The position numbers and the translations under genes were made by a program. This document shows, one piece after another, positions 1,592-25,683 of a DNA stretch of 64,000 bases (within the stretch, counting starts at the first letter, position 1; each line of letters opens with the position of its first letter). This DNA comes from Eubacteriales bacterium (lineage in GTDB: Bacteria; Bacillota; Clostridia; Oscillospirales; CAG-272). The stretch covers positions 361 to 64,360 of the forward strand of contig JAZQWH010000192.1 in the NCBI GenBank assembly GCA_045632205.1, given 5' to 3'. Below the pieces are notes generated by a model. It was not told the origin of the DNA. It saw only the letters and a list, made by a program, of their open reading frames with translations, and did no database searches.

Positions 1592-1605
1592 AGGGGGGCA
1601 GAAAA

Positions 1606-3314: not shown

Positions 3315-3322
3315 TTTTTGAT

Positions 3323-3366
3323 ACAAGGCAACACAAAAACGCGGTTGCCTTGTAATTTTTTTTTTC
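3323..3366 (+). terminator. Intrinsic terminator after the ABC genes
   Basis: Hairpin acaaggcaac/gttgccttgt followed by a run of about 10 T. Confidence 0.75.
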
Positions 3367-3454
3367 AAAAAACCAAAACACAAACAAAACTTTAACATTT
3401 CTATGTTATACTATACGTATAAAAGCCAAAATACCCCCTTTGGAGGACAAGAAT

Positions 3455-4126
3455 ATGTTTAAAATTCTAATTGTGGAGGATGACAGAGATCTGAACCGCA
3501 GTGTTTGCTCGTTTCTTAACGGCAGCGGATATGAAGCGGTCGGTTGTCTTGATGCGGAAAGCGCATACGACGAGATGTACAAGACGGTCTTTGACTGTAT
3601 TGTTTCGGATATTATGATGCCTCATATCGACGGCTTTGAGTTCGCCAAGACCGTGCGCTCCCTCAACAACGATATTCCGATTTTGTTTATGACCGCCCGT
3701 GATGATTTCGCGTCCAAGCAGAGAGGCTTCCGCATCGGTATCGACGATTATATGACCAAGCCCATCGACCTTGACGAGCTGTTTCTGCGCATTGGCGCGC
3801 TTCTTCGCCGTTCCAAGATCGCATCCAGCCGTCGCCTTGAGGTGGGTAATTTTGTGATGGATGCCGATGAGAGAAGCGCTACCTTGAACGGTGAGGAAAT
3901 ACCTCTCACGGCAAGAGAGTTTGATCTTCTTTATAAGCTCCTCTCCTATCCCAAAAAGACCTTCACGCGCACACAGCTGATGGACGAGTTCTGGGACGTG
4001 GATACACAGACGGGCACTCGCACGGTTGACGTGTATATGACCAAGCTTCGCTCCAAGCTCTCGGATTGCGATTCCTTTGAGATTCAGACCGTCCACGGTC
4101 TTGGTTATAAGGCGGTGATCAAATGA
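3455..4126 (+). CDS. OmpR-family response regulator
   Basis: Receiver motifs (ILIVEDD, SDIMMP, MTARD, KP) and a winged-helix C-terminus (TVHGLGYK). RBS ggagga lies before ATG 3455. Confidence 0.9.
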   Translation: MFKILIVEDDRDLNRSVCSFLNGSGYEAVGCLDAESAYDEMYKTVFDCIVSDIMMPHIDGFEFAKTVRSLNNDIPILFMTARDDFASKQRGFRIGIDDYMTKPIDLDELFLRIGALLRRSKIASSRRLEVGNFVMDADERSATLNGEEIPLTAREFDLLYKLLSYPKKTFTRTQLMDEFWDVDTQTGTRTVDVYMTKLRSKLSDCDSFEIQTVHGLGYKAVIK

Positions 4127-5214
4127 AAAAGCCGAGCTTTCGCGGTTTCCTTCGGGAGTTCAGTAGCTTTCTGTTGTTCTTTCTGTCGGTAGGCTTTGTG
4201 GTCTCCTGCTGTATGATGCTTTTTTTGAAGGTTTTATCAACGGAAATGGGGCTTGTTTATACCTCCGAAAACATCGCAGAAGCGGCAAAGATCACCTTTC
4301 TCAACGTTGTCATTATCACCGTGCTTTTCAAAACCGTTGATTTTATCCGTCGCAGGATGATGGTGGATAAGCCGGTCAAGCTGATTACAGATGCTGCAGA
4401 GAAAATTATGAACGGCGATTTTTCTGCCCGTGTGAGGCTTATGCACGGCTCGGGAATGGAGGGCTTCAATCAAATCGGTGAATCGATCAACGCGATGGCA
4501 GAGGAGCTTTCGAGCGTGGAAACCCTGCGCACCGATTTTATTGCCAACGTCTCCCACGAAATGAACACGCCCCTTGCCGTAATGCAGAACTACGGAACGC
4601 TTTTGCAGGCTCCCGACCTTCCCGAAGAAAAGAGAGTGGAATACGCCAAGGCAATCACCGACGCCTCGCGCCGTCTTGCCGATATGATGACGAACATTCT
4701 CAAGCTCAATCGGCTTGAAAATCAGCAGATCTATCCGAACCCCACCACCTTCGACCTCGGCGAGCAGCTTTGCGAGAGTCTTTTGCAATATGAGGGCACG
4801 TGGGAGCGAAGGAATATCGAGATCGAAACCGATATAGCCGAGAATGTGATCATTTCTGCCGACTCGGAGCTTCTTTCGCTCGTTTGGAACAACCTTTTCT
4901 CCAATGCCTTCAAGTTCACCGAGGATGGCGGCAAGGTCACGCTCACGCTTGCGGCAGACGAAGCATACGCCACCGTAAAAGTAACCGACACGGGATGCGG
5001 AATGAGCGCAGAGGTTGGCGCGCACATCTTTGAAAAGTTCTATCAAGGCGACACGTCGCGTGCAACGCAGGGAAACGGACTCGGACTTGCACTTGTCAAG
5101 CGTGTGGTTGATATTATGCAGGGCGAGATCGGCGTGGAAAGCGCCGTCGGTGTCGGAACAACGTTTACGGTCAAGATCAGGAGGGCGAATGATGGATTGG
5201 CAGAAACTCGGTAA
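4123..5214 (+). CDS. Sensor histidine kinase (HAMP-HisKA-HATPase)
   Basis: H-box FIANVSHEMNTPL, N-box NLFSNAFKFT, G1 DTGCGM, G2 GNGLGLALV. Two N-terminal TM segments. ATGA overlap with the regulator. Confidence 0.9.
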   Translation: MKKPSFRGFLREFSSFLLFFLSVGFVVSCCMMLFLKVLSTEMGLVYTSENIAEAAKITFLNVVIITVLFKTVDFIRRRMMVDKPVKLITDAAEKIMNGDFSARVRLMHGSGMEGFNQIGESINAMAEELSSVETLRTDFIANVSHEMNTPLAVMQNYGTLLQAPDLPEEKRVEYAKAITDASRRLADMMTNILKLNRLENQQIYPNPTTFDLGEQLCESLLQYEGTWERRNIEIETDIAENVIISADSELLSLVWNNLFSNAFKFTEDGGKVTLTLAADEAYATVKVTDTGCGMSAEVGAHIFEKFYQGDTSRATQGNGLGLALVKRVVDIMQGEIGVESAVGVGTTFTVKIRRANDGLAETR

Positions 5215-6082
5215 AGCTCTGCTGTTCCCGCATCTCGCGATTATGATATTGTTCGTTCCGATTGCAACCGTTTTGCTGGTCGGTTCAATGGTATTTATCG
5301 GAACAGAGTCGATTATCGCGTACGTCTCATATGTCCTTGCCGCTTATACCCTCACGGTTTGGTGCTTCAAGATTCCGTATTTGATCAAATTTTTTAAGAT
5401 CTTCAAGCAAGAAAACAAATATGCAAGAAGATGGCAGGAGGATACGCGCCTGCGCGTGAACGTATCTCTTTACGGATCGCTTTCGTGGAACGCCTTGTAC
5501 GGAATCCTTCAGCTGTGGCTTGGATTTTACCACCACACCTTCTGGTTCTATTCTCTCGGCGCGTACTATATCTGTCTTGGCGTGATGCGCTTCTTCCTGG
5601 CGCGTCACACAACGAGATACGCTCCGGGCGAGAGAATGCAGATTGAGCTGAAAAAATACCGCGCCTGCGGCATCGTGTTTCTTGTGATGAACTCAGCCCT
5701 TGCGCTGATCATCTTCTTTATGGTCTATTGGAACAGAACCTTCGAGCATCATATGATCACGGCGATCGCGATGGCGGCATATACCTTCACGGCGTTTACG
5801 GTAGCGATCGTAAACGTGGTGAAATACCGCAAATACAACAGCCCCGCTTTTTCTGCATCCAAAGCGATCAGTCTGGCGGCGGCGCTTGTGTCGATGCTGA
5901 CGCTGGAATCCACGATGCTCACGACCTTTGGTGATGGAACGATGACCGCTACCGCACAAAAATGGATGCTCGGAGCGACAGGCGGCGTGATTTCGGTATT
6001 GATCGTTGCTACAGCGGTTTATATGATCGCGGTTGGAACAAAGAAACTCAGAGAATTAAAAACAGAGGTTGAAAATGGATAA
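5189..6082 (+). CDS. Polytopic membrane protein, unknown function
   Basis: RBS aggaggg lies before ATG 5189, with hydrophobic segments throughout. The ORF-track N-terminal extension (5015-5188) lies inside the kinase gene and looks non-protein-like. Confidence 0.7.
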   Translation: MMDWQKLGKALLFPHLAIMILFVPIATVLLVGSMVFIGTESIIAYVSYVLAAYTLTVWCFKIPYLIKFFKIFKQENKYARRWQEDTRLRVNVSLYGSLSWNALYGILQLWLGFYHHTFWFYSLGAYYICLGVMRFFLARHTTRYAPGERMQIELKKYRACGIVFLVMNSALALIIFFMVYWNRTFEHHMITAIAMAAYTFTAFTVAIVNVVKYRKYNSPAFSASKAISLAAALVSMLTLESTMLTTFGDGTMTATAQKWMLGATGGVISVLIVATAVYMIAVGTKKLRELKTEVENG

Positions 6083-6488
6083 CAATAATCAAGAACAAAA
6101 CGGATTTACTTACACCTACTCCGCGCGTGAGCAGGCAGAGCTGAAGCGCATCCGTGATAAATACACCGCCCAAACAGAAGCCGAGGACAAGATGACTCGC
6201 CTACGCCGACTTGACGCAAGTGTTACCAATACGGCACAAGCGGTCGCGCTCGTGTTCGGTGTAATTGGAACGCTCATTCTCGGCTTTGGAATGAGCCTTG
6301 TTATGACAGAGCTTGCAGACAGCCTTGGTATTTCGGGGGATGCAGCTATGGTGATCGGCATTACCGTAGGCATCGTCGGCGGCATTCTCGCAAGCCTTGC
6401 TTATCCCATCTACAATGCCATTGTAAAAGCAAAGCGCAAAAAGCTCGCCCCCGAGATCCTTCGTCTGACCGATGAGCTGATGAAATGA
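6075..6488 (+). CDS. Small membrane protein (two central TM helices), unknown function
   Basis: RBS agagg lies 7 nt before ATG 6075. Charged N-terminus, Gly-rich TM pair, basic C-terminus. Confidence 0.6.
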   Translation: MDNNNQEQNGFTYTYSAREQAELKRIRDKYTAQTEAEDKMTRLRRLDASVTNTAQAVALVFGVIGTLILGFGMSLVMTELADSLGISGDAAMVIGITVGIVGGILASLAYPIYNAIVKAKRKKLAPEILRLTDELMK

Positions 6489-6565
6489 GGAGCGGAGAAT
6501 AAAACGACCTAACAATCCGATCAATCCTTAATATCCGAATCGGACAGGGAAAAACACCAAAACGG

Positions 6566-6594
6566 TTGAAAGGGTTACAGAACTATGATATAAT
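6566..6594 (+). promoter_or_regulatory. Sigma-A type promoter (TTGAAA-N17-TATAAT with TGn) plus conserved leader, copy 1
   Basis: ttgaaa 6566-6571 and tataat 6589-6594. The promoter and the leader cgataaataagaatttgt recur at 7780-7840. Confidence 0.65.
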
Positions 6595-6635
6595 AATCTC
6601 ACCGATAAATAAGAATTTGTTTAGGAGGAATAAAT

Positions 6636-6959
6636 ATGTTTGGATTATTTGCTAAAAAGGTTATGAACGAAGAAGCCGCCAAGTCTTTTTGGGAATGGTT
6701 TGCAGAAAAAGAAGAGTGGATTATCAGTTGTATTTCCAATCACGACTCAGCATTTGTATGGGCAATCGATGAAAAGTTAAAACCGGTATTCCCTTATTTC
6801 AAGGGAGAACTCGAATTCCAGCTTGGATACAACAATGGCGTTGGAGAATTTTTCTTCTTCCACTTTGGAAAAAAAGACCTTGCTCGTGATGGCGAAGCCT
6901 TGGGAAAGATGATGCCTCCAGAAATCGCAAAAAATTGGAAACTTATTCTTGAAAAATAA
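6636..6959 (+). CDS. Hypothetical small cytoplasmic protein (107 aa)
   Basis: Strong RBS aggagg, AT-rich coding sequence, no motif recognised. Confidence 0.6.
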   Translation: MFGLFAKKVMNEEAAKSFWEWFAEKEEWIISCISNHDSAFVWAIDEKLKPVFPYFKGELEFQLGYNNGVGEFFFFHFGKKDLARDGEALGKMMPPEIAKNWKLILEK

Positions 6960-6966
6960 ATTAGCC

Positions 6967-7054
6967 AATTCCAATTTTTCGGGATGATACAGAACGAGGG
7001 CTGACGAAATCAATCGTCAGCCCTCAAAATTTGCGTCAGAGGAAACAAAGAAAA
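6967..7054. repeat. Repeated intergenic hairpin/junction element, copy E1
   Basis: aattccaatttttcgggatgata ... gagggctgacg-N8-cgtcagccctc ... aaaatttgcg..aaagaaaac. Related copies at 8475-8563 and 31487-31545, tail only at 30637-30670. Confidence 0.8.
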
Positions 7055-7058
7055 CAGG

Positions 7059-7613
7059 TTACGGCTTCATCACCTTGATAAAGTGGAACATTTCGTCGGG
7101 ACCTTCATCGGGATCACGCTCATCGTCATCGGGCATCTCGTGGTCGGGTGTGAAATACTCACACCAAAATTGGTCGATTTGAAAGCCGCACTTGTTTACG
7201 TAAAAATGAATATTGCGCTTTTCAAAATAGGGAGTACAGGTCTCCCAAACCTTCGTTTCGGGGTGCAGAGCCTCGACCTCCTGCCACGCGCCGTAGCCAA
7301 TGCCCTTGGTGTGCTCCTCGGGGGAAACGAACAGGATCTCCAGCTCGTTGTGGTTCGTTTCCTTGTTGATCTTCAGAATCACGCCTCCAACCCGTCTGCC
7401 ATCCAAAACGATGCGGTAGGTCTCGTTGTTGGCATCGTCGATGGATTTTTCGATGGTTTTGCGAGAAATGATCTCACCGTCACCGTCAATGTGGTCATCG
7501 CGCTCACCAAACTCCATCATCGCGCCATACTTGAACGCCCATTGATTGTCAAGAATGAATTGCTCACGGTCGTCTGCCGTAAGCGGAACAAGAGTAACCT
7601 TCGTGTTTTTCAT
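7059..7613 (-). CDS. GNAT-family N-acetyltransferase
   Basis: 184 aa with the acetyl-CoA pocket-like motif HTKGIGYGAW and GNAT-like beta-strand spacing. Acidic C-terminal tail. Confidence 0.7.
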   Translation of the reverse strand: MKNTKVTLVPLTADDREQFILDNQWAFKYGAMMEFGERDDHIDGDGEIISRKTIEKSIDDANNETYRIVLDGRRVGGVILKINKETNHNELEILFVSPEEHTKGIGYGAWQEVEALHPETKVWETCTPYFEKRNIHFYVNKCGFQIDQFWCEYFTPDHEMPDDDERDPDEGPDEMFHFIKVMKP

Positions 7614-7779
7614 AAAATACCTCCGAAAATAAAAATAGAGCTAAGGTCTTGCGAATGCAATAACCCAAGCTCACTTGGACACCTAATCCGGCATTTTGGT
7701 ACTACGGTACACAGCCTCCGGTGACAAATATTCAACGCAGAGATTATACCATAAATACGGGTGAATGTCAAGTAAGCGA

Positions 7780-7808
7780 TTGAAATATTCATAAAAATAT
7801 GATATAAT
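7780..7808 (+). promoter_or_regulatory. Sigma-A type promoter plus conserved leader, copy 2
   Basis: ttgaaa 7780-7785, 17-nt spacer with TGn, tataat 7803-7808. Followed by the leader cgataaataagaatttgt shared with 6566-6630. Confidence 0.65.
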
Positions 7809-7872
7809 AAACGCATCGATAAATAAGAATTTGTAGGAGATATATCTTTCCTAACGGATAATAAAAAACAAG

Positions 7873-8472
7873 ATGAAAACATTGATTATTATATGGTGTA
7901 TAACACTTTTTGCAGACAATCTACTTCCGTTGGTGCTTGCACGCTTCTATCCGAATTATAGTCATAAAGAAAAGGCGCTGTCTGTCCTTGGTTCACGCCA
8001 AAGCCCGGTGAGGTGGATATACAATGTGTGGTGTATCATATCAGGAATTGCTTTTTGTATTGCCCCTTATGAGTTGTACAAAGAGAATAGTAGCGATTTG
8101 ATGATAGCAATATGGGTATTGCTTGCAATATACGGCATCGGCTGTGAGATTATATCGGGATTCTGTCCATTAAACGAGAACAAACAAGACGAGGATGCAC
8201 TGACCAAAATTCACGGCGGTGCTTCTGCGATCGGATTTATGACATTACTCGTTGTACCGTTACTCTTGGCAATATTGCAATTTCAAGCTACCAATATAAT
8301 TATGGGAGTAATCTCACTTGTTAGCTTTATTGTGGCTTTCGCTTTCTTCTGCTTTTTCATTATGGGAGAGAAAGAAAAGTTTGCAAATACGGTTTTGCGA
8401 TACGGCGGTCTTTGGCAACGACTTGTTTTATTAAGTTGTTACATACCGTTGTTCATTTGGTGTCTTAAATAA
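7873..8472 (+). CDS. Polytopic membrane protein (DUF998-like, tentative)
   Basis: 199 aa, about 6 hydrophobic segments, AT-rich. No good RBS before ATG 7873, so the start is uncertain. Confidence 0.55.
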   Translation: MKTLIIIWCITLFADNLLPLVLARFYPNYSHKEKALSVLGSRQSPVRWIYNVWCIISGIAFCIAPYELYKENSSDLMIAIWVLLAIYGIGCEIISGFCPLNENKQDEDALTKIHGGASAIGFMTLLVVPLLLAILQFQATNIIMGVISLVSFIVAFAFFCFFIMGEKEKFANTVLRYGGLWQRLVLLSCYIPLFIWCLK

Positions 8473-8474
8473 CA

Positions 8475-8563
8475 AATTCCAATTTTTCGGGATGATAAAA
8501 GCTAGGGCTGACGGAAAACAACCGTCAGCCCTCAAAATTTGCGGTGCAGTAGGCAAAGAAAAG
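8475..8563. repeat. Repeated intergenic hairpin/junction element, copy E2 (contains the left 18-bp direct repeat 8546-8563)
   Basis: Same architecture as E1. The tail gcagtaggcaaagaaaag is identical to 30653-30670. Confidence 0.85.
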
Positions 8564-8775
8564 CCCCGGCGAGAAGGTCAGATCAAAGCGGTTGGATAGA
8601 CAGCCGCTTTTTTCTCTTCTGCGTGAAAAAAGCTCAAACAATATGCAAAGAACGTGGATTGATGCTTCAAGATGTTGCAACTTTTTATCAAAACATTAGA
8701 CAAACAGGTTGCAAAACAAAAGAAAGTATGATATAATATAGAATATTCAAGCTTTAGCTTTTGCGAGGTGTAGAT

Positions 8776-8997
8776 ATGGGTATCAGCTATAAAAAACTAT
8801 GGGTTCTCCTGATTGAAAAGGATATTACAAGGGCGCAAATGCGCAGAGATCTGAAGATTGCCACGGGTACGATGAGCAAGCTGAACAAGGGTGAAGAAGT
8901 CGCCTTGTCGGTGATTCTCCGTATATGCGAATATTTGGATTGCGATATTGGTGACATCTGCTCTGTTGTAAATCAGAAAAAGGAGGACTCTGTATGA
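8776..8997 (+). CDS. XRE/Cro-type helix-turn-helix transcriptional regulator (73 aa)
   Basis: Motif ITRAQMRRDLKIATGTMSKLNKGE resembles an HTH. RBS gaggtg precedes ATG 8776. Stop overlaps the LytTR regulator start (ATGA). Confidence 0.75.
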   Translation: MGISYKKLWVLLIEKDITRAQMRRDLKIATGTMSKLNKGEEVALSVILRICEYLDCDIGDICSVVNQKKEDSV

Positions 8998-9725
8998 TAC
9001 GAATTGCATTATGTGACGATGAGAAAAGCTATCTTGATAAAATAAAAGGTATATTAGAGCAATACGAAACCGAGAAGGGGTTGTTATTTGATATTCACTC
9101 CTATTCATCCCCTTCTGCCTTGCTTGACAAAATTGAGGCGGGCGAGGAATATTCCATCTATATACTGGACATTTATATGCCCGGCATTACGGGAATGAGC
9201 GTGGCAACCCAGCTTCGTGACATGGGTGTGGAGTCTCCCATTATCTTTTTAACGTCGTCACCCGATTTTGCGTTACAGGCATTTGGAGTGAACGCAACTC
9301 ACTATATACTGAAGCCCTATGATAAGGATTCGGTTTTCTTTGCCATAGATAAGGCATTGAACGAGATCGGTATGATGCGTCCCGAAGGAATCATGCTTCG
9401 CATCGACGGAGGATATCAAAACGTTCTGGCAAAGAATATTATATTTTCCGAGGCAGACGATAACTATCAACGCATCCACTTGGTGAATGAAAAATATTTG
9501 TATATAAGAATCACGATGGGAGAGCTTTACGATCAACTTTCGGGCTTGAACGGATTTTTTAAGTTGGGACGCTCTCACGTTATAAATTTGAAACACGTTG
9601 TCAAATTCACCTCAAACAAGCTGTTGATGACAGGCGACAAGGAGCTGACAATTCCAAAAGGCGCAATTGCGGATTTCAAAACTGCTTATTTTGATTATTT
9701 CAGCACCCAGACCAATCTTTCTTGA
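8994..9725 (+). CDS. LytTR-family response regulator
   Basis: Receiver domain (IALCDDE, LDIYMPGITG) and a C-terminal LytTR-like segment (FFKLGRSHVINLKHV). Confidence 0.85.
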   Translation: MIRIALCDDEKSYLDKIKGILEQYETEKGLLFDIHSYSSPSALLDKIEAGEEYSIYILDIYMPGITGMSVATQLRDMGVESPIIFLTSSPDFALQAFGVNATHYILKPYDKDSVFFAIDKALNEIGMMRPEGIMLRIDGGYQNVLAKNIIFSEADDNYQRIHLVNEKYLYIRITMGELYDQLSGLNGFFKLGRSHVINLKHVVKFTSNKLLMTGDKELTIPKGAIADFKTAYFDYFSTQTNLS

Positions 9726-9740
9726 AAGGAGTAAGCAAAA

Positions 9741-11006
9741 ATGGATTTTTGGAATGCGGTTATTGACGGTGTTGCCGTTATTACAGCACACGTCATGAGC
9801 GGATTGTTTTCTGCTCCGTTAAAATACAAAAAATGGACATCCGTTCTCATTTGGTGCGTATGGGGTGTAGTTCAAGCAGTGCTGTTTATTCCCGCTATGA
9901 CCTCGACCGCCGACAAGGTGTTTGGCTTTATATTCGGATTTGTCACTCCTTACGTTGGACAGTACGTTTTGTTTTTCATTACCACAAAAGGAAAATTCGC
10001 TAAACGTTTGTTTACGATCCTCACCTATTCGGTATTTTTCTGTATCTATATGGCTATTGCAACCTCGGTCATTGGAAGCTTTCCCAATTTACATTGGGGA
10101 GTTGCTTCACTGATACGGATCGTTCTGTTATTTGTAGTGGTGTTTATTTTTCTCAAAAAAGTATGCCCACTGTTTTGGAATAACCTATCCGAGTCAATTA
10201 AAAGCTGGTGGCTTTTGGTCTTTGCGGATGCGGTGTTTTTACTTGCTGTCGTTTCATCCTCAGTATTTCCCAACAGGATAGAAAACGTAAGGAACCCGTA
10301 TTTTATTGCTTTTCTCACCTTGGTTATTGCCATTGTTTCGGTATATCCTATCATATTTATCAGTATCAAAAATATGGCGGTGGCAGAACGTGAAAAACGA
10401 AGCTTATTGCACAACGAGCTTTTGCTCTCCCAAGTGAAGTCGCAGGAAAAAGAAGTGGAAACGGCAAGACGGACAAGACACGACCAGCGGCAGCATTACG
10501 GAATGCTTTTGTCCTATGCCCGAAACGGAGAGATGGAAAAGATTATTCAGTATCTTGAGGAGCGAACCGAGAGTATTGACAATCTTCGTCAGATGGTATT
10601 TTGCGAAAACGATGCGATCAACAACATTTTGTCGGTCTATGCTAACAAGGCATCGGCGGTATGTATTCCGATGGAGATAAAGGCAAGTGCAAAAAAAGAA
10701 TTGAAGGCATCTACGTCCGATCTTGTCACGATTATGGGCAACGTGTTGGAAAATGCTATTCACGGCGCTCAAAGCTCCAAGGCAAAAGCCCCCACACTTT
10801 CCGTTGAAATCTATCACAAAAGCGGAAGGCTTGTGGTAAACTGTAAAAATTCCTGCAAGAGAGGTCTTGATTTTGACGAGATACCCGACTCGCTTGCAAG
10901 CATTGGAGTGAGAAGCATTCGTTCCACCGTTGAAAAGTATAACGGCATTTGCCGATTCTCCGCACACGACGGAGTTTTTACAGCTCTGATCATTATGGAC
11001 AAGTAA
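9741..11006 (+). CDS. AgrC/HPK10-like GHKL sensor histidine kinase
   Basis: Six or more N-terminal TM segments, a coiled linker, H-box-like RTRHDQRQH, N-box NVLENAIHGA and a C-terminal GVRSIRSTVEKYNG. Confidence 0.8.
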   Translation: MDFWNAVIDGVAVITAHVMSGLFSAPLKYKKWTSVLIWCVWGVVQAVLFIPAMTSTADKVFGFIFGFVTPYVGQYVLFFITTKGKFAKRLFTILTYSVFFCIYMAIATSVIGSFPNLHWGVASLIRIVLLFVVVFIFLKKVCPLFWNNLSESIKSWWLLVFADAVFLLAVVSSSVFPNRIENVRNPYFIAFLTLVIAIVSVYPIIFISIKNMAVAEREKRSLLHNELLLSQVKSQEKEVETARRTRHDQRQHYGMLLSYARNGEMEKIIQYLEERTESIDNLRQMVFCENDAINNILSVYANKASAVCIPMEIKASAKKELKASTSDLVTIMGNVLENAIHGAQSSKAKAPTLSVEIYHKSGRLVVNCKNSCKRGLDFDEIPDSLASIGVRSIRSTVEKYNGICRFSAHDGVFTALIIMDK

Positions 11007-11077
11007 ACCTATCCTATTATATATATTGTTTCCATTAAAGACTCTCTTTCGTAAAGAGGGTCTTTTGCTTTTTGTCT

Positions 11078-11107
11078 GTTCACCACAAAAAAATATCCGT
11101 TCACCAC
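11078..11107 (+). promoter_or_regulatory. LytTR-type operator: direct repeat GTTCACCAC-N12-GTTCACCAC
   Basis: Identical 15-mers gttcaccacaaaaaa start 21 bp apart (11078 and 11099). A tatact -10 lies at 11142-11147 with a poor -35, and the site is 77 nt upstream of the first operon gene. Confidence 0.6.
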
Positions 11108-11183
11108 AAAAAACGGTGCAGATGATTTTTTGTGATAGACTTATACTGTCCAAAAATATATTTGGAATTGGAGAATTGGAATC

Positions 11184-12443
11184 ATGAATTCAACTAATGA
11201 CAATAAAAATCAAACTACTGTTGATGAAGATATTGCGAGAATGCGAAATGATCTGAAAATGGGACGATTTACTCTCGATTTCGAGGGAATGGAAAGTATG
11301 ACCATTTTGCAAAGAACCGAGTTTGTTCGACACGGACTTTACGAAGAAAGAGGAAAACTGCCGGAAAACGCAAAACGACTTGTAAATGATATTACCTTAG
11401 AGTCTGACCGTATGGATTTTTTTCCTAACGTTCATTTGATTTGTGAAAAAATGATTGCAAGCTCTGATAAACGCTTTGAGCAGGCGAAAAGCGCGTTTAC
11501 CTCTGCCCTTAACAACAGTAACGTTCGTCCGGGTAAAAAGGCGGTAAGCATACGTCGAACAATAGATGCAAAATATGACTCTGCTGTGGCAAAGCAGCTT
11601 GCCGAGGAAAGAAAAAAGATCGATGCGCAAAAAAAGGCGATGGAGAAGTATATCAAGATGGCTCCACAGTCCTCTTATGCGGCTATGATGGTTGATATTC
11701 TCAAGCAAAATGAAGAGAGCTATCAGCTGACCTCACAGTATCTGTCTGCACAGGCGACCGTTGGCAAATACGAAGCCTATGAGAAGAGTGGCGTGCTTAC
11801 CGAAGAGGAGAAAAAGCTTTGCACCTTGGCAAAGGAGATGGAGCAGGCATCGCAGCTGAAGCTGACCAACCACAAACAGAACTCCTATCTTATGCAGGCG
11901 CGCGATGCGTTCTTAAGACTTGATAACAAAAAGCTCATGATGCAGGCTCACAAAGGGCTGTTGAATTGCGCGAAAGATTCTCTTGCTTTCATAGAGGTCC
12001 CCAAGGAAATGACCGAGCGTCTTCTTGAGCACGGGCTTATGGCAAAAGAGAAAACGTATTATGAGGCATTACAGGCAAAGCAAGACCTGAAAGGGTTTCA
12101 CCCATTCAAGAAAATGGCGCTTAACCGCGAGCTCCAAAAAACTGCGAAGGAATACAACGAGGGGCTTGCGCTTTTGCCTGACACTCTGGAAAATAAGTTA
12201 AAGCATCCCCCTCTGACAACGCTTGAGGAATGGAAAAAGAATATTATGCCCACCGAAAAAATTCAGGAAGACCTGGATTTTCCCGTAGAGGTCATTGAGG
12301 AAAAGAAGGGGGCGAAGCAAACGCAGCTTGATCTCGGAGACAGGATACACGCGCCCAAGGAAGCTGCAGTGCCCACCTTTGAGAAAGAGAAGGTAACGGA
12401 GATACAAAAGAATACCTCCGAGCTTGACAAGGAAATTTGGTAA
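11184..12443 (+). CDS. K/E-rich alpha-helical protein P1 (419 aa) with C-terminal QLDLGDRIH module
   Basis: RBS ggaga. No signal peptide or TM segment. The C-terminal module is shared with P2 and P3. Confidence 0.75.
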   Translation: MNSTNDNKNQTTVDEDIARMRNDLKMGRFTLDFEGMESMTILQRTEFVRHGLYEERGKLPENAKRLVNDITLESDRMDFFPNVHLICEKMIASSDKRFEQAKSAFTSALNNSNVRPGKKAVSIRRTIDAKYDSAVAKQLAEERKKIDAQKKAMEKYIKMAPQSSYAAMMVDILKQNEESYQLTSQYLSAQATVGKYEAYEKSGVLTEEEKKLCTLAKEMEQASQLKLTNHKQNSYLMQARDAFLRLDNKKLMMQAHKGLLNCAKDSLAFIEVPKEMTERLLEHGLMAKEKTYYEALQAKQDLKGFHPFKKMALNRELQKTAKEYNEGLALLPDTLENKLKHPPLTTLEEWKKNIMPTEKIQEDLDFPVEVIEEKKGAKQTQLDLGDRIHAPKEAAVPTFEKEKVTEIQKNTSELDKEIW

Positions 12444-12459
12444 AAGGGAGAAAGAGAAT

Positions 12460-14820
12460 ATGGCAAAAAAGGGATACGATCCGCACAACAAGGTGAACTT
12501 CGACGCCAAGGTAAACGATCAAGGCAAGACGTTAAGAGACGAAATAAACGAGGCGATGGCGATTGGCAAGGAGGACAATGTAAATTACCGCAATCAGGTT
12601 GCTGAATTGCTGCAGGGAGAGGTTGAACAGGAGATGTTCAACTACGTACAGAGCATTGATAAATCGGGATACGCTGAGGTTCTCAATAACCAAGCTCTTA
12701 CCCGAGATATTATTTCCCTATTCCGGCAAGATGACGTATTCAACCGGATTCAGTCCGCCGATCAGGTACAGCGTCTTCAGAATATATTTACCGATCACCT
12801 TACCGTGAAGGCAAGAAGAGCGGAAATTATGGCAAAGGAGCAGGCAGGTCAGCAGATCACGGCAGAGGAAAGATCCGTCCTTGATCAAAAAACCTCCTTC
12901 GAGACCTATATGGATCGCGCAACCAAGAGCTACTTTGTGCAAAAGATCCTAGACGTTGAATATTATATCTCCCAAGCCAGAGATGATGCGCTGTTCACCA
13001 ATTATCATAAAAACGCCGATCAGATCAAAAAGTCGCTCAACAGAAACCTTGCTTTATACAGAAGCGGCGGAAGAGGAGGATTTGGCGTAAGCTTTAATTT
13101 CCATAAAAAGGACGTATCTCCGATTTTTTATGATAGCAAAGCACTTGATCAGTATGCAAGCTCTTTGATCGAAATAAGAGAAAAGTTCAAAACGCAAAGC
13201 TCGGTGCTTGCGGTGTACCGTGAAAGCGCCAAGAACCTTGAAACAGCGGGCGATAACTGGAAGGGCGCCGCAAGACACTATAAAATTATGACCGATGCGG
13301 AAGCCGTTGCGCATTTCAAGCGTCCTAAGGAAAAGATCTCTCAGTATGAGTACGATAAGGAAAACCTCAAGCGCTTGATCAATAAGAAGGATGATCTTCA
13401 CAAGCGTTATAACGTGGCGCTTGACCGCTTCCACAAGTTAGAGCAATACATCTACGATCATCCCGAGGTCAAGGACTATCTTGATTCGCCCGAGTATCTT
13501 GAGGTAATGAAGCTGGAGTATCACGAGGGTACGTATGAGGGCAAGTCCTTTTCGGAGATGACTTCCCTCGATCAGCAGAATTACGTCCTCGATAAATACG
13601 GATGTGCAGAGCTGAGAACGATCCCCAGAGAGCACAGAGAGGCTTATTCCCTGGCAAGAGATAAAAAGGCGCAGGAAGAGCTCCGTGATCTTGAGGATAA
13701 ATTTGAGAACGCAGAGCATAGGATCAAGATGTATTGGGGAGACCGTCCCGTAACTCCCGAAATGGAGATCCAAAAGCTGGAGCTGGAGGAAAACCGTGCG
13801 ATCATCGACGCGCTCCGCAATTGCGTAACCAAAAATTCTCCCGAGAACGAAGCAAAATACGTTGAGGCGGTCAAAACCGCATACGATAACGCAAAGCAAA
13901 GATACCTCGACAATCCGGAGCTCAGAGATCGTATGGATCTGAGAGCAAAGCAGCTTGATAAGGGCGATTTCTCATTTGTTCCGATCAGCAATCAACAAAT
14001 GGCGTTGTCGTTCGATATGTCCCCTATCTGGTCGGATGATACCACCAGATTTACCAAGGAGCAGAGGGAGGCGGCAAGAGCTGCACGTGAGAACAGTTTT
14101 CTTACGCGTTCCTATCTGGAGCGAGTCAAACCGCTTGTGCAGCCTCAATTCCAGATCCAGATCGAAAACGAAAGACAGGCAGCACGCGAATACACGCTCA
14201 AGCAAATGGCCCGCGGCTTGGATAAGGAAGACCTTGAGGCGTACAAGACCGACATCAATAACAGAAGGATGGAGAAGCTTGAATATACGAGAGACGAATT
14301 CAAGCTCAAGCTGGACGCGCTCAGTGAACAGAAGGACGCACTGAAAAAGCAGCACGGCTTCTTTACCAGAGTGTTCAGCAGCAAGTATAGGGTGTCCGCA
14401 AAGGAAATAGACCAAAAGATCGACGGTCTCCGCAAGGCATACAAGTCCGAGCAGGACAAGGCAAGATACGATATTCTCAAGACCTATCAGGAAAAAGGTC
14501 TTGCTATGACGAGATCGGAGGCAAACGAGCTTAAATCCCTTACCAAGGAAGCTACAAAAACGGGCGACCTGCAAAAGTGGGACAAGGAAAGAGCCGAGGA
14601 AAAGCGCAAGATCGAGGAGTACAACAGAACTTTCGGTGAGACGGAGATGGAAAAGCCGCAGGGAACCGAGAAAAATGTTCCTACTACGACCCAACTTGAT
14701 CTGGGGGCGCGGATCCACAATCACAAAACCGTGGAGCAGCCCATAAAGGAAGAGACGGTAAAGGAAAATACGATCGCAAAAGAGCAAAAGACCTTAGAAG
14801 AAAAGGACATCGAAATATAA
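12460..14820 (+). CDS. K/E-rich alpha-helical protein P2 (786 aa) with C-terminal QLDLGARIH module
   Basis: RBS aagggag precedes ATG 12460. No signal peptide or TM segment. The last ~200 aa are homologous to P3. Confidence 0.75.
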   Translation: MAKKGYDPHNKVNFDAKVNDQGKTLRDEINEAMAIGKEDNVNYRNQVAELLQGEVEQEMFNYVQSIDKSGYAEVLNNQALTRDIISLFRQDDVFNRIQSADQVQRLQNIFTDHLTVKARRAEIMAKEQAGQQITAEERSVLDQKTSFETYMDRATKSYFVQKILDVEYYISQARDDALFTNYHKNADQIKKSLNRNLALYRSGGRGGFGVSFNFHKKDVSPIFYDSKALDQYASSLIEIREKFKTQSSVLAVYRESAKNLETAGDNWKGAARHYKIMTDAEAVAHFKRPKEKISQYEYDKENLKRLINKKDDLHKRYNVALDRFHKLEQYIYDHPEVKDYLDSPEYLEVMKLEYHEGTYEGKSFSEMTSLDQQNYVLDKYGCAELRTIPREHREAYSLARDKKAQEELRDLEDKFENAEHRIKMYWGDRPVTPEMEIQKLELEENRAIIDALRNCVTKNSPENEAKYVEAVKTAYDNAKQRYLDNPELRDRMDLRAKQLDKGDFSFVPISNQQMALSFDMSPIWSDDTTRFTKEQREAARAARENSFLTRSYLERVKPLVQPQFQIQIENERQAAREYTLKQMARGLDKEDLEAYKTDINNRRMEKLEYTRDEFKLKLDALSEQKDALKKQHGFFTRVFSSKYRVSAKEIDQKIDGLRKAYKSEQDKARYDILKTYQEKGLAMTRSEANELKSLTKEATKTGDLQKWDKERAEEKRKIEEYNRTFGETEMEKPQGTEKNVPTTTQLDLGARIHNHKTVEQPIKEETVKENTIAKEQKTLEEKDIEI

Positions 14821-14875
14821 TATAGGTACAGCCTACAAAAATAATACAAAATATAAACGAAAGTGAGAAAAAACC

Positions 14876-15562
14876 ATGGCAAAGATAACAATTAAGGAAA
14901 AGCAATTTAAAATTAAGAATGGCGAATTCAACCTGGATCTGGCAGCATTCAAATTAGAAGGTGAAGATCTGAAGCAGTATAAATTAAGCATATACAGCCG
15001 CCGCGAAGCCGATTACCAGAATAAACTTGACGCGATTTCTGCAAGAGAAAACGAGTTCAAGGAAGAAAAGGAAGCTCTGAAAAAGAAATACGGATTTTTC
15101 GGCAGACTCTTTAACAAAAGATGCAGAGCCGAAATGAAAAGAATCAACCAGAATCTCAAAGAACTCCCGCAGTCCTATAAGCAGGCTAAAATGGAAACGC
15201 AATATTACGTGCTCAAGGAATTTCAGGATAAGGATCTTACCATGACCGCTAAGGAAAAGAAGGCTCTGGCTTCTATCGAAAAGGACATACATCCCTACAT
15301 AAAGGGTGAGTGGGATAGAAGACGTGAGAAAGAAAAGGAAGTCAATGAACGTGCGTCTCAGTCATACAAAACATACGATCAGTTAAAAAAAGAAAAAGAA
15401 GCCGAAAGGCTTGAGCGTACCAATGCTAAGAAGCAGCTGGACCTCGGAGATAAGATTCACAAGCCCGTGGAAAAGACAGAAACGGTCCGCGAGACTTCCG
15501 TAAAGGAAAAAGAGATCGAAAAGGAACAGAAGGTTCAAGAAGGCCCCGATCTCGAAAAATAA
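14876..15562 (+). CDS. K/E-rich alpha-helical protein P3 (228 aa) with C-terminal QLDLGDKIH module
   Basis: Aligns with the P2 C-terminus (ALKKxxGFFxRxF ... QLDLGxxIH). Confidence 0.7.
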   Translation: MAKITIKEKQFKIKNGEFNLDLAAFKLEGEDLKQYKLSIYSRREADYQNKLDAISARENEFKEEKEALKKKYGFFGRLFNKRCRAEMKRINQNLKELPQSYKQAKMETQYYVLKEFQDKDLTMTAKEKKALASIEKDIHPYIKGEWDRRREKEKEVNERASQSYKTYDQLKKEKEAERLERTNAKKQLDLGDKIHKPVEKTETVRETSVKEKEIEKEQKVQEGPDLEK

Positions 15563-15582
15563 TACTCAAAGGATAACTTCCA

Positions 15583-18033
15583 ATGAAAAATAACAAAAAA
15601 TCAGAAGGAATAGGAGCAAAGCTGGCATCATTAGGGATCCGTGCGGGAATCGGACTTGCCATTTCCCTTGGATTGGCGCTTGTGGGCGTGATACTTGTCT
15701 GCGGCACGTTTGTATTTGAGCCGTGGATGATCGCATCACTGACAATATTTGTAATATCCTTGCTGTCGATCATATTATCCGACCTACTAGCTCTGTTATC
15801 TGCCGCATTGAATAAGGTTTTGATGACCGTATATTCATTTGCCATTGTGGGTGCTATCTTTTCTCTTTTAACTTACGCTATCATATCTTCGAAATTTAAT
15901 TTTGAGGATATGAATTGGCAAAGAATTTTCACAAGCTTTGCCGGTGACAAATTGTTTTATACCATCTTTGCTCTTTTCGCCATTACCCTTGTAGTAGGGT
16001 ATTACGGATTTGTAAACCGCGCTGAGATCGGGGACCTGATCGCAACGCTGACGGGTAACAAGGGTAAGCTCAATCAGATTGAGGCAAACCTTGAAAACTC
16101 CCGTTGGATGACCGACGCGGAAAGAGATAAGATATTCAACTCGTGCAGATACAGCGACCTTGAGGGTATGAAAAAGGACGGCGTACCGATCCGCGCGTTG
16201 TACGATGGCAAGAAGGATATGAAGATCACCTTCAATTCCCCCTGTCACGGACTGATCATCGGTAGTACGGGTTCGGGTAAAACGACCACCTTTATTAACC
16301 CGATGATCCAGCTTCTCGGCGCATCGGGCGCAGGCTCGTCTATGATCATGACCGACCCTAAGGGTGAGCTTTTCTCACTGCATTCAAAGTTCCTCAAGGA
16401 CAGAGGCTATGACGTAAAGGTGCTTGACCTTCGCGATGCTTACCACTCATACAGATGGAATCCCTTAGAGCCGCTTTGGGACGCTTATCAGGAATATCTC
16501 GGTGCGGAGCGCGCAGCTTTTCAGCACGAGAACGAAAACGTAGAGGAAAGCGGACTTACTCTCACAGCAAAGCCCGAGGAATACGGCGACGCTTGGTTTG
16601 AGTTTAAGGGGAAGGCGTACACCGATATGGAGCGCCTCGTAAAGGAAGTGAAGATCTTCCGCACACAGACCTTTGACGAGATGTACGAGGATATGAACGA
16701 CCTTGTAAGTGTTCTCGTTCCCGTTCAGAATCAGAACGATCCTATGTGGGAAAAGGGCGCAAGATCGATCACCATGGGCGTTCTTCTTGCAATGCTGGAA
16801 GATAGCGCCGATCCCAGGCTTGGAATGACAAAGGAAAAGTTCAATCTGTTCAACGCATCGAAAATATTACAGAATTCCAACGATGAATACCGTGAGCTTC
16901 GCGAGTATTTTCAAGGAAGAGATCCCTTGTCCAAGGCGGTGGCGGTTTCCAAGCAGGTGCTTGGCGCCCCCGACAAGACTCGTTCGTCCTATATGAGCGT
17001 TCTTCTTGAAAAGCTCTCGATATTCAACGATACGGGAATATGCGCGCTGACCAGCTCATCGGATTTCAAAACGTCCGATCTTGCAGAGCGTCCTACGGCG
17101 CTTTTCGTCAAGATACCCGACGAGAAGGATACGAGACACGGTCTGGCATCTATATTCCTCACCAACGTTTACAAATCGCTTATCAAGGTGGCATCGTCCT
17201 ATGAGGATCTATCGCTACCGAGAAACGTGTACTACATCCTCGACGAGTTCGGTAATATGCCGAAGATCGAAAAGTTTGATAAGATGATCACCGTCGGACG
17301 AAGCCGAAAGATCTGGTTCAACATGGTGGTGCAGTCCTACGTACAGCTCAACAACGTTTACGGAGATACCGTTGCCGACATCGTCAAGGGTAACTGCGGT
17401 ATCAAGATGTTTATCGGCTCCAACGACATGGGAACCTGTAAGGAATACAGTGAGCTTTGCGGAAACGTAACGGTGCTCACGAAATCCACGTCGGGCAACA
17501 AGAAGGGCGGAGACGTCAATGTCAGCGAAAGCATGCAGACCCGTCCGCTGATCTACCCGTCCGAGCTTCAAAAGCTTAATAACAAATTCTCTTCGGGCAA
17601 CTCCCTGGTGGTAACCTTCGGAAACTATCCGCTCAAAACACAGTTTACACCGAGCTATAAATCTCCTCTTTATCAAATGGGCAAGATGGATACCGACGAT
17701 ATTGAGGGCAGACTGTTTGAGGAAGAGGAAGTATTCTATAACATTGCACGTCGGAACAGATTTGTTTTGCGCCCCGATGAGATACTTCCTGAGGAGCTTG
17801 AAGAATTAGAAGAAGAAACGGTTGAACCTGAGGAAGAGACCGAAATCACCGAAGAGGAAAAAGCGGTTAAACTTGAGGAAGAGACCGAAATCACCGAAGA
17901 GGAAGAAACGGTTAAACTTGAGGAAGAAACCGATATCGCCGAAGAAAAGACGGTAGTGCTCGAAGATGAGACAGTATCTTTGGAGGAAGAAGAAAATTCT
18001 AATGAATCGGGAGGACAGAATGAAACAACATAA
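15583..18033 (+). CDS. VirD4/TraG-type type IV coupling protein (T4CP) with acidic repeat tail
   Basis: About 4 N-terminal TM segments, Walker A GSTGSGKTT, Walker B YYILDEFGNMP, and T4CP-typical GRSRKIWF..VQSY. The C-terminal ~90 aa are E/T-rich repeats. Confidence 0.85.
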   Translation: MKNNKKSEGIGAKLASLGIRAGIGLAISLGLALVGVILVCGTFVFEPWMIASLTIFVISLLSIILSDLLALLSAALNKVLMTVYSFAIVGAIFSLLTYAIISSKFNFEDMNWQRIFTSFAGDKLFYTIFALFAITLVVGYYGFVNRAEIGDLIATLTGNKGKLNQIEANLENSRWMTDAERDKIFNSCRYSDLEGMKKDGVPIRALYDGKKDMKITFNSPCHGLIIGSTGSGKTTTFINPMIQLLGASGAGSSMIMTDPKGELFSLHSKFLKDRGYDVKVLDLRDAYHSYRWNPLEPLWDAYQEYLGAERAAFQHENENVEESGLTLTAKPEEYGDAWFEFKGKAYTDMERLVKEVKIFRTQTFDEMYEDMNDLVSVLVPVQNQNDPMWEKGARSITMGVLLAMLEDSADPRLGMTKEKFNLFNASKILQNSNDEYRELREYFQGRDPLSKAVAVSKQVLGAPDKTRSSYMSVLLEKLSIFNDTGICALTSSSDFKTSDLAERPTALFVKIPDEKDTRHGLASIFLTNVYKSLIKVASSYEDLSLPRNVYYILDEFGNMPKIEKFDKMITVGRSRKIWFNMVVQSYVQLNNVYGDTVADIVKGNCGIKMFIGSNDMGTCKEYSELCGNVTVLTKSTSGNKKGGDVNVSESMQTRPLIYPSELQKLNNKFSSGNSLVVTFGNYPLKTQFTPSYKSPLYQMGKMDTDDIEGRLFEEEEVFYNIARRNRFVLRPDEILPEELEELEEETVEPEEETEITEEEKAVKLEEETEITEEEETVKLEEETDIAEEKTVVLEDETVSLEEEENSNESGGQNETT
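17830..17964 (+). repeat. 45-bp tandem repeat (about 3 units) encoding the acidic T4CP tail
   Basis: Units 17830-17874 and 17875-17919 are near-identical (gaggaagagaccgaaatcaccgaagagga..). Unit 17920-17964 has diverged. Confidence 0.85.
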
Positions 18034-25342: not shown

Positions 25343-25374
25343 AAATTAACAAAAAATAAAAAGGAGTTATTCAC

Positions 25375-25683
25375 ATGAAAAACTTGATTTACGCACTGGC
25401 AATCGATGAGGTACAAGCAAATGAAATGGTCAGCCCTGTCATGGAGCTGATTCAGGTATTTATTCCCGTTATTCTCACGCTCGTGGCAACCGTAGGCTTT
25501 ATCTGGTGTATCGTTCTCGGCGTAAAGTTCGCAAAGTCCACAGATCCCCAGGAGCATCAGCAGGCAAAGAAGTCCTTGATCAATGCCATTATCGGTTTTG
25601 TTCTGATCTTCGTTTTAATGCTGGTTCTTCACATCGCGTTCCCCTATTTCCTTGAAATGGTCAAGGGTGTATCTAAGTTCTGA
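25375..25683 (+). CDS. Small two-TM membrane protein, VirB2/TrbC-like topology (tentative)
   Basis: 102 aa, RBS aaggag. Two hydrophobic helices separated by a charged loop (KFAKSTDPQEHQQAKK). Confidence 0.5.
   Translation: MKNLIYALAIDEVQANEMVSPVMELIQVFIPVILTLVATVGFIWCIVLGVKFAKSTDPQEHQQAKKSLINAIIGFVLIFVLMLVLHIAFPYFLEMVKGVSKF

Follow-up and report, generated by a model that had tools for sequence, protein, structure and literature searches.

The DNA analyzed here, hereafter called the window, is a stretch of 64,000 nucleotides of contig JAZQWH010000192.1 from a Eubacteriales bacterium. On its + strand, the genes of a two-component system (a LytTR response regulator and a membrane histidine kinase) are followed by an intrinsic terminator, a pair of direct repeats, a promoter and a long operon encoding components of a type IV secretion system (T4SS). 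We propose that the repeats are probably the operator of an activator-dependent promoter, through which the adjacent LytTR regulator would switch on the T4SS operon.

The Repeat Pair

The 15-nt sequence GTTCACCACAAAAAA occurs in two exact copies on the + strand, at 11078-11092 and 11099-11113, 21 bp from start to start. The repeat extends to 18 nt with one mismatch (TCTGTTCACCACAAAAAA at 11075-11092 versus TCCGTTCACCACAAAAAA at 11096-11113, 94% identical), and in the alternative register the half-sites read TCTGTTCAC at 11075 and TCCGTTCAC at 11096. The 9-bp cores (11078-11086 and 11099-11107) are separated by a spacer of 12 bp, which gives the period of 21 bp. The distal half-site, DR1 (TCTGTTCACCACAAAA, 11075-11090, + strand), contains the core GTTCACCAC and has its predicted centre at about -66. 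The proximal half-site, DR2 (TCCGTTCACCACAAAA, 11096-11111, + strand), has its predicted centre at about -45 and abuts an empty -35 slot at 11113-11118. The region containing the repeats reads ttgtcTGTTCACCACAAAAAAAtatcCGTTCACCACAAAAAAcggtgcagatgaTTTTTTGTGATAGACTTATACTgtcc. The pair lies between the terminator of the kinase gene (hairpin at 11037-11065) and the first gene of the T4SS operon (start at 11184). The A6-7 tracts within each half-site, phased by two helical turns, would bend the DNA in phase.

This is the sole direct repeat of at least 12 nt at a spacing of 16-30 bp within the window. In first-order Markov simulations of the window, a 15-mer repeat at this spacing was never obtained (0/200), and a 12-mer repeat was obtained in 7/200. 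A half-site matrix built from related sites, and scanned as two half-sites 20-22 bp apart, gave 58 bits for the repeat pair and -2.4 bits for the next independent position; a score of -0.9 bits corresponds to the same pair shifted by 1 bp and not to a separate site. The repeat pair is not due to chance, and it is unique in the window.

An earlier reading of this DNA, the original prediction, had been made from the letters alone. It had pointed out the two identical copies starting at 11078 and 11099, their alternative-register half-sites and their placement between the kinase terminator and the first operon gene. All three observations hold: the copies match exactly, the 18-nt extension agrees with the alternative register, and hairpin and gene start lie on either side of the pair. 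It had also called for a search for further repeat pairs, which, run as the matrix scan of the 64-kb window, returned this one site. Its description as 9-bp repeats with a 12-nt spacer was correct as to the geometry; the conserved half-site is about 16 nt rather than 9.

The general LytTR consensus attributed to Nikolskaya and Galperin (2002), [TA][AC][CA]GTTN[AG][TG], is matched at 8/9 positions by TCCGTTCAC and at 7/9 by TCTGTTCAC, with the GTT core present. LytTR consensus sequences are described as loose in general (PMC6193735). A terminator-like hairpin on the minus strand (11116-11097) was rejected: it is merely the CCGTT...AACGG around DR2 and is unconserved in relatives.

The Promoter

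Downstream of DR2, a T-tract is followed by TGTGaTAGACT (together 11126-11141, + strand). From the sequence, this is predicted to be a TRTGn extended -10, with TGTGa at 11131-11135 and the hexamer TAGACT at 11136-11141, at a conserved offset of 36-37 bp from DR2. A second -10-like hexamer, TATACT, lies at 11142-11147 (+ strand; offset of 42 from DR2) and has counterparts at an offset of 42-43 in many relatives; its role may be that of an alternative -10 or of an AT-rich discriminator. At the -35 slot the sequence is ACGGTG (a 1/6 match); TATACT, too, lacks a -35-like hexamer in front of it. The gap between the 9-bp core of DR2 and the -35 slot is 5 bp. The tatact hexamer had been named in the original prediction as a -10 lacking a good -35. 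It is indeed present, and the -35 is absent, but the -10 at the conserved position is TAGACT, 6 bp upstream. Using this conserved TAGACT, transcription is predicted to start near 11148, and the centre of the repeat pair would lie near -55, or near -61 when counted from tatact.

A TAnnnT hexamer stands 36-37 bp past the TTC of repeat 2 in 17/20 of the modules listed, and at 38 bp in 2/20; L035 has none. The best hexamers at distant loci are TATAAT (L023, L028), TATACT (L059), TATGAT (L022) and TAAAAT (L046). The hexamer is preceded by TRTG/TGTG or TnTG in the window, L001, L004, both modules of L008, L022, L046 and L059. On the other side of the repeats, the intrinsic terminator of the two-component-system operon (11037-11076, + strand) consists of a 13-pair hairpin followed by a T-run, whose tail abuts DR1. 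The hairpin is kept in relatives, with its sequence altered.

Conservation in Related Elements

Related loci were fetched through the kinase, the regulator and ORF419, the first gene past the repeats. They come from ruminant and gut metagenomes and from metagenome-assembled genomes (MAGs) of Eubacteriales/Clostridia. A blastn search of 8500-12500 against a plasmid database gave no match, and a search of a genome collection gave three near-identical MAG loci and no others. The module formed by the repeats and the extended -10 is conserved in the window, L001, L004/L005, L008/L009 (two modules), L053, L064, L083 and L084. Eight promoter modules (window, L001, L004, the two of L008, L064, L083 and L084) were used as a footprint set. 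The conserved half-site is about 16 nt long, TC[CTG][GA]TTC[AG]CCACAAA[AT] (TCyrTTCrCCACAAAA), and the conserved promoter part is TGTGnTAnAnT. The 12-14 nt between repeat 2 and the T-tract are unconserved, as is all the sequence upstream of repeat 1. Among the loci that keep the module, ORF419 identity goes down to 63%, and the period is exactly 21 bp in 20/20 related modules examined. Kept in orthologous promoters while their flanks drift, the repeats are, from this comparison, apparently under selection. An Rfam search of 10900-11300 found no family match, so that no riboswitch or leader RNA accounts for the conservation.

The 15 identical nucleotides, and a unit number that varies (2 versus 3) as from slippage, could also suggest a recent and functionless 21-bp tandem duplication. 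We regard this as extremely unlikely, since the repeats are kept where the first operon protein is 63-75% identical and the flanks are unalignable, and likewise at unrelated LytTR loci.

Variation in the number and position of the modules is informative. L001 has three units in the same phase, the most upstream of which is degenerate. In L008, a first module (8079-8150) is located after the kinase and before an inserted gene for a 1215-aa Flg_new/LRR surface protein. A second module (12116-12190) is found 4 kb downstream, before the ORF419 homolog, with entirely different upstream flanks. Six independent loci were recovered through the regulator or kinase and extend beyond the latter, and all six carry the repeat pair directly after the terminator (L001, L004, L008, L011, L087, L088), as do 5/5 of the ORF419-anchored loci with an upstream intergenic region; this protein-anchored sampling is unbiased with respect to the motif. 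The three units of L001, the duplicated module of L008 and the unbiased sampling argue for a functional, portable cis-module. In L085 and L086, the ORF419 homolog follows another gene at a distance of 24 bp, and the module is missing at that place; their promoter must lie farther upstream, off the contig.

Some further features of these elements were observed. L009 has the same two-module layout as L008. The L008 element also carries a tyrosine integrase and two ThsB-like TIR (Thoeris-type) genes upstream of its two-component system. L001, the three-unit MAG, has its regulator gene (5237-5982) broken into two overlapping frames, 5237-5569 and 5503-5982, by either a frameshift or an assembly error, and the regulator may therefore be inactive there.

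A Sister Clade with Altered Half-Sites

The regulators of a sister clade (L011-13, L087, L088) are 46-49% identical to that of the window, and the layout of their loci is unchanged: regulator, kinase, terminator, repeat pair, promoter and cargo. Their half-sites read TTC(A/G)CGAC (TTCACGAC) versus TTC(A/G)CCAC, again with a period of exactly 21 bp. These loci bear genes of mobile elements (RepA_N, HTH and Flg_new giant proteins).

In an alignment of the regulators, residue 157 (window numbering) is N in 8/8 LytTR proteins linked to CACCAC and K in 3/3 linked to CACGAC. The CACCAC-linked proteins are 24-100% identical overall, and 24-29% identical to the window regulator outside its own family. 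Residue 157 aligns with K167 of AgrA, two residues before H169, in an AgrA sequence used for orientation. The loop of H169 is reported to contact bases in the crystal structure of AgrA bound to DNA. The AgrA sequence used has FFRCHNS at 196-202, in agreement with the published numbering (PMC4227749). N157 with CACCAC and K157 with CACGAC thus form a candidate specificity pair, for which the alignment is suggestive.

Occurrence of the Motif in Metagenomes

Public metagenomes were scanned with the pattern TTCRCCACAAA-N10-TTCRCCACAAA, and 66 stretches were obtained, together with 2 from viral contigs. The loci fall into two classes, 29 with 3-8 copies of the full 21-nt unit and 39 with two copies. 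A LytTR gene lies within 0-6 kb of the pair in 7/39 of the two-copy loci (L022, L028, L035, L048, L059, L062, L072), and the 6/6 genes tested were confirmed by Pfam. Two more two-copy loci have a kinase homolog at the contig edge (L023, L053) and one has an ORF419 homolog (L064); several short contigs of the scan are copies of these LytTR-, kinase- or ORF419-linked families. Where the LytTR locus is unrelated, the pair in most cases stands in front of an operon of the type [M13 peptidase]-FtsX/MacB permease-ABC ATPase-regulator-kinase. As the operon that it heads contains the regulator, those operons would be autoregulated. The motif thus probably represents the operator type of a broad LytTR clade, of which the mobile element would use one member, placed outside the regulated operon.

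One of these loci, L022, has two divergent pairs about 30 bp apart in one intergenic region, at 5904-5935 (minus strand) and 5963-5998 (plus strand), an arrangement reminiscent of agr P2/P3. One faces the FtsX-ABC-regulator-kinase operon and the other a 137-aa gene without Pfam match. Further two-copy families from marine and soil metagenomes (L021/L025/L056; L037/L039/L052/L065/L066; L075/L078; L077) showed no LytTR gene on the fetched stretch in HMM searches. Their pairs may be operators of off-contig regulators, or unrelated repeats.

The class with three or more copies is of another kind. The array locus examined, L018, contains eight 21-bp units (3300-3560, minus strand) followed by an AT-rich stretch, and the adjoining Rep gene (3677-4771) has Rep3_N and Rep3_C domains; this array is a plasmid iteron origin. 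Similar arrays were found in L015, L027, L030, L042, L044, L047, L051, L057, L058, L060, L063, L067, L073, L076, L079 and L080. In the freshwater plasmid arrays, the iteron core TTCACCACAAA is identical to the core of the LytTR half-site, and a conserved AT-rich stretch (ATGATT..AAAAAC..AAAACA) follows each array.

The repeats of the window could be read as iterons, or as a DNA-processing site (replication origin or oriT), with no role as a transcriptional operator. Direct repeats of about 21 bp, phased as in the window, are typical of iterons such as those of Rep_3 plasmids (pPS10/pSC101-type), and the arrays of 3-8 units that share TTCACCACAAA include L018 with its Rep_3 gene and AT-rich stretch. 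However, the window has two copies (three in L001) beside a promoter, and no Rep_3 domain was found by Pfam in the flanking genes. Also, the arrays repeat the whole 21-nt unit, whereas most LytTR-linked sites repeat the core alone, although the window pair itself is identical at 16/21 positions at least. Finally, the spacing to the -10 is fixed at 36-37 bp, the module is duplicated before different genes, and 0/29 array loci have a LytTR gene. Such a replication or processing function is, in our opinion, most improbable here.

The Two-Component System

The response regulator (8994-9725, + strand) has Response_reg and LytTR domains in Pfam. Its receiver shows the expected signature (DD..., ILDIYMPG, and K in ILKP), with a predicted acceptor Asp59 in ILDIYMPG. 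The LytTR domain was detected with E = 4.9e-9 and 36.7 bits, against a cutoff of 22.6. This protein is proposed to bind the repeats. The kinase (9741-11006, + strand) is a membrane histidine kinase of 421 aa, of the AgrC/ComD type (HPK10-like). Its N-terminal half is hydrophobic, its H-box reads RHD, and Pfam detects a GHKL HATPase_c_5 domain. Their operon begins with a sigma-70-like promoter at 8709-8737 (+ strand; TTGCAA, 17-bp spacer, TATAAT, and TG before the -10).

No repeat pair was detected upstream of the regulator gene in the window, L004, L008 or L011, in contrast to agr, com, blp and the HdrR/BrsR-type systems, so that no positive feedback loop is predicted. Judging from its own sigma-70-like promoter and from the lack of a second repeat pair in the window, the two-component system is not autoregulated here. 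The label "AgrA-type" used in the original prediction is true of the regulator in the broad LytTR sense; nevertheless, it is not an AgrA equivalog, as it reaches 31.4 bits with the NCBIfam model quorum_RR_AgrA, whose cutoff is 400. The prediction had likewise seen no AgrB/AgrD-like genes, and Pfam detected none among the ORFs of at least 65 aa in 5015-11006 and the operon genes, a scan in which AgrD-sized ORFs (<50 aa) were not examined. The neighbours of kinase and regulator are instead DUF998, GNAT and HTH_26 proteins (Pfam). With no AgrB or AgrD among the scanned ORFs, a regulator that is no AgrA equivalog and no autoregulation, the system is not an agr system.

The operon also includes a gene for a small Cro/C1-type HTH_26 protein of 78 aa (8761-8997, + strand; likely start ATG at 8777). 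Its stop overlaps the start codon of the regulator (ATGA), which couples the translation of the two genes in the window. Cro/C1-like repressors commonly control the transfer genes of mobile elements, and together with this coupling it could be thought that the repeats are the operator of the HTH_26 protein, acting as a classical repressor of the transfer operon. HTH dimers, however, usually bind inverted and not direct repeats. Moreover, no homolog of the HTH_26 protein was found in any of the related loci fetched that keep the operator, not even in L001 and L003 with their kinases of 93-97% identity. Missing from all of them, it stands outside the conserved system and seems to have joined the two-component-system operon in the window only. 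We consider its action on the repeats very unlikely. Altogether, the data speak against three readings of the repeats: as an iteron or oriT, as the operator of HTH_26, and as a duplication without function.

The Target Operon and the Surrounding Element

The target operon (11184-30636, + strand; Pfam, NCBIfam) spans about 19.5 kb and comprises nine tightly spaced genes in the order ORF419, ORF798, ORF228, T4SS coupling protein, 2458-aa protein, T4SS pilin, ORF247, VirB6-like protein and VirB4-like ATPase. The VirD4-type coupling protein (15583-18033, + strand), the pilin (25375-25683, + strand) and the VirB4/TraG-type ATPase (27985-30636, + strand) were recognized by Pfam, and the families T4SS-DNA_transf/TraG-D_C, T4SS_pilin and P-loop_TraG were found in the cluster. 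The VirB6-like conjugal transfer membrane protein (26453-27967, + strand) was assigned by NCBIfam. In NCBIfam, the operon proteins matched MMCAP2_0566 (136 bits, cutoff 90) and Mbov_0396 (103 bits, cutoff 70), and below the cutoff pLS20_p028 (35.5 versus 150). With a coupling protein, a VirB4-type ATPase, a VirB6-like protein and a pilin-like protein, the cluster has the genes of a conjugative T4SS. A relaxase and an oriT would set a DNA-transfer system apart from secretion systems of other kinds; no relaxase domain was detected among the operon proteins with Pfam, NCBIfam and PHROGs. No convincing + strand terminator was found inside the operon. Downstream of the VirB4-like gene, a hairpin read from the sequence (30670-30703, + strand), GGCGTAAGTCC / GGACTTACGCC followed by TTTT, is the probable end of the operon.

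ORF419, ORF798 and ORF228 had no match in Pfam or PHROGs, and in NCBIfam a negligible match for ORF419 alone (18 bits, cutoff 480). The family of ORF419 (11184-12443, + strand) is narrow and counts 63 proteins, all of which lack Pfam domains. The AlphaFold2 model of ORF419, built with 27 homologs, is confident (pLDDT of 82) and shows an all-alpha bundle with very long helices and a disordered, charged C-terminus; a Foldseek search of the model against the PDB gave nothing with E below 0.7. ORF228 (14876-15562) is homologous, with E of about 1e-20, to part of the ORF798-type proteins of about 770 aa in related elements. The window thus seems to hold an extra partial paralog of the second operon gene (ORF798, 12424-14820).

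Upstream of the two-component system are found two ABC-2 transporters and a HisKA-type kinase (60-5214), then unknown genes, GNAT and DUF998. The G+C content is 41-48% at 6-33 kb versus 52-58% past 34 kb. The low G+C block fits a mobile element, and the jump at 33000-34500 is probably its right boundary. No integrase or relaxase was identified within the window. Close to this side, a perfect consensus promoter (TTGACA, 17-bp spacer, TATAAT, TG) is followed, 23 nt on, by a 10-pair hairpin and a T-run (30817-30904); this could be a small RNA or a leader/attenuator. A short ORF just downstream (start at 30978) runs for about 60 codons and, by eye, resembles a MATE efflux protein at its N-terminus. 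It may be what is left of a gene disrupted at the element's edge.

Proposed Mechanism and Alternatives

The locus shows the features expected of a LytTR direct-repeat operator, namely the geometry, a LytTR regulator at the locus, the position before a weak or absent -35, and the conservation. The operator reading draws in addition on the copy number and duplication of the module, on the joint change of motif and regulator, and on the linkage to LytTR genes in metagenomes. The original prediction had already assigned the site to the adjacent regulator (8994-9725), and all the in silico tests that we ran are consistent with this assignment. From these data we infer that the regulator binds the repeats, that it activates and does not repress, where transcription starts, and that all genes of the operon are transcribed together.

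According to this model, the HTH_26-regulator-kinase operon would be transcribed from the sigma-70-type promoter at 8709-8737 and would end at the hairpin at 11037-11065. The membrane kinase would sense a signal and phosphorylate the LytTR regulator, which would then bind DR1 (11075-11090) and DR2 (11096-11111) as a head-to-tail dimer. The two half-sites are two helical turns apart and would therefore present the same face of the DNA. At DR2, abutting the -35 position, the dimer would recruit RNA polymerase or stabilise it on the extended -10 promoter (TGTGaTAGACT, 11131-11141). Transcription would start near 11148 and run through the T4SS operon of about 19.5 kb.

Several observations weigh against this model. 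The start site is uncertain because two -10-like hexamers stand in tandem. The LytTR domain of the regulator is divergent, its FhRhHRS motif reading FFKLGRS, and a search of the PDB with the regulator sequence returned matches to receiver domains only, with no solved LytTR structure. The correlation of N157 and K157 with the half-sites reflects a single evolutionary split, and 28 other columns of the alignment also separate the clades, so that this pairing is suggestive and not proof. The same 11-mer at a 21-bp phase is also found in Rep_3 plasmid iterons, and the motif alone is therefore not diagnostic. The window covers 64 kb of the host genome, and a LytTR regulator elsewhere is possible. 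Finally, an inverted copy of the half-site (12/15 match, minus strand, 11140 to 11126) overlaps the extended -10, so binding could repress.

The last two points correspond to distinct alternatives. The inverted copy suggests a brake or mixed role, in which the unphosphorylated regulator, or a third protomer on 11126-11140, occludes the -10 and induction amounts to derepression. The T-tract and TGTG are conserved in the closest relatives, and AlgR offers a parallel, in that its low-affinity site at -45 of algD has the opposite orientation and its overexpression leads to repression (PMC4064291). However, the inverted similarity is mostly what is expected from a TRTG extended -10 behind a T-rich spacer. 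Also, the copy is lost in L064, L083 and L084, as well as in distant loci, although direct repeats and spacing to the -10 are kept there, and the promoter lacks a -35, as is typical of activator-dependent promoters. A brake is thus unlikely in our view.

It can also be asked whether the repeats serve another LytTR regulator, whose gene would lie at some other place in the host or the element, with the adjacent two-component system as a mere neighbour. Cross-recognition is plausible, given that TTCRCCACAAA pairs serve LytTR proteins as diverse as 24-29% identity. On the other hand, none of the related elements sampled has the operator separated from the regulator-kinase pair, and the half-site changes along with the clade of the adjacent regulator. 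We hold a distant regulator to be quite unlikely, and retain activation by the adjacent one as the preferred explanation.

Comparison with Known Systems

ComE-box promoters rely, like that of the window, on an extended -10 and have no -35, and the ComE half-site, aCAnTTcaG, is unlike GTTCACCAC of the window. The ComE boxes of S. pneumoniae comCDE, comAB and comX resemble the window in their two 9-bp direct repeats with a 12-nt linker, to which the phosphorylated ComE dimer binds via tandem LytTR domains (PMC4005675). ComE autoregulates comCDE, and its known peptide CSP has its gene and exporter within the regulon. In the window, by contrast, a separate promoter serves the two-component system, a search for peptide or exporter genes found none, and the genes to be switched on are those of a T4SS.

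The AgrA system (S. aureus agr P2/P3) shares with the window a LytTR regulator and a multi-pass membrane GHKL kinase, as well as a direct-repeat pair just upstream of promoters with defective cores. AgrA-dependent promoters have suboptimal core elements, and the pair is centred at about -60 for AgrA (PMC4227749), as compared with -55 to -61 in the window. Unlike agr, the window has no divergent P2/P3 pair and no positive feedback; the relative L022 does have two divergent pairs.

In the LytTR Regulatory Systems of the HdrR/BrsR type, the repeats are 12 bp (11-13) apart and precede the -35 by 4-11 bp, and the -10 is often extended, as confirmed by EMSA (PMC6193735). The sequences of the repeats differ widely among these systems (PMC6193735). 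HdrR/BrsR of Streptococcus mutans are thus like the window in the 12-bp spacing and the extended -10, and the gap of 5 bp between core and -35 slot in the window can be set beside theirs. Their LytTR protein stands alone, is paired with an inhibitor in the membrane and controls its own expression, whereas the window has a phospho-accepting response regulator with a kinase and is not predicted to be autoregulated. In the ComE, AgrA and HdrR/BrsR-type promoters alike, a poor or missing -35 follows directly on the repeats, and the core promoter is either compensated or defective.

A likeness to AlgR of Pseudomonas aeruginosa was also observed. The alternative-register half-site CCGTTCACC agrees at 7/9 positions with the AlgR consensus CCGTTCGTC and at 8/9 with the AlgR rhlI site CCGTTCATC (PMC4064291). 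AlgR sites, however, are mostly single, at variable and often remote positions and in either orientation, and the organism and regulon are unrelated to those of the window.

Among conjugation switches, PrgX/cCF10 of pCF10, RapI-PhrI/ImmR of ICEBs1, Rap/Rco of pLS20, TraR of Ti plasmids and RteA/RteB of Bacteroides CTnDOT are like the window in that a sensory module borne by the element gates a long transfer operon. None of them is known to use a LytTR response regulator with a direct-repeat operator. In the literature on LytTR regulators we found no report of the control of a conjugative T4SS or an integrative and conjugative element (ICE), and incidental co-mentions only. Thus, the design of the switch is well known, and its conjugation target is new.

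Significance

The control of conjugation in Gram-positive gut anaerobes is little understood. The known Gram-positive paradigms are peptide/RRNPP systems, Rap-Phr systems and cI/ImmR-type repressors. Elements of the kind described here appear abundant in ruminant metagenomes, where one regulator cluster counts 212 member sequences. We see about an even chance that the elements of ruminant-gut Clostridia possess a LytTR "transfer switch" of their own. In such a switch, a constitutively produced AgrC-like kinase would respond to an extracellular cue (a peptide or a signal from the recipient or host), and a non-autoregulated regulator would fire a T4SS and adhesin operon. The portable module would have been copied before acquired surface-protein genes, and N157/K157 would be the specificity pair.

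If this is true, it would be the first LytTR-controlled or two-component-controlled conjugation system in Firmicutes. The regulons of this LytTR clade could be searched with the pattern TTCRCCACAAA-N10-TTCRCCACAAA followed by TAnnnT 36-37 bp later, and the N157-CACCAC / K157-CACGAC pair would offer a clean swap to learn how LytTR domains read DNA. Also, it would show how the reuse of a promoter module of about 70 bp brings cargo, such as giant Flg_new/LRR surface proteins, under one switch. These elements would then form a clade whose transfer machinery is gated by a two-component sensor, and the cue that triggers horizontal transfer in the rumen and gut would become testable.

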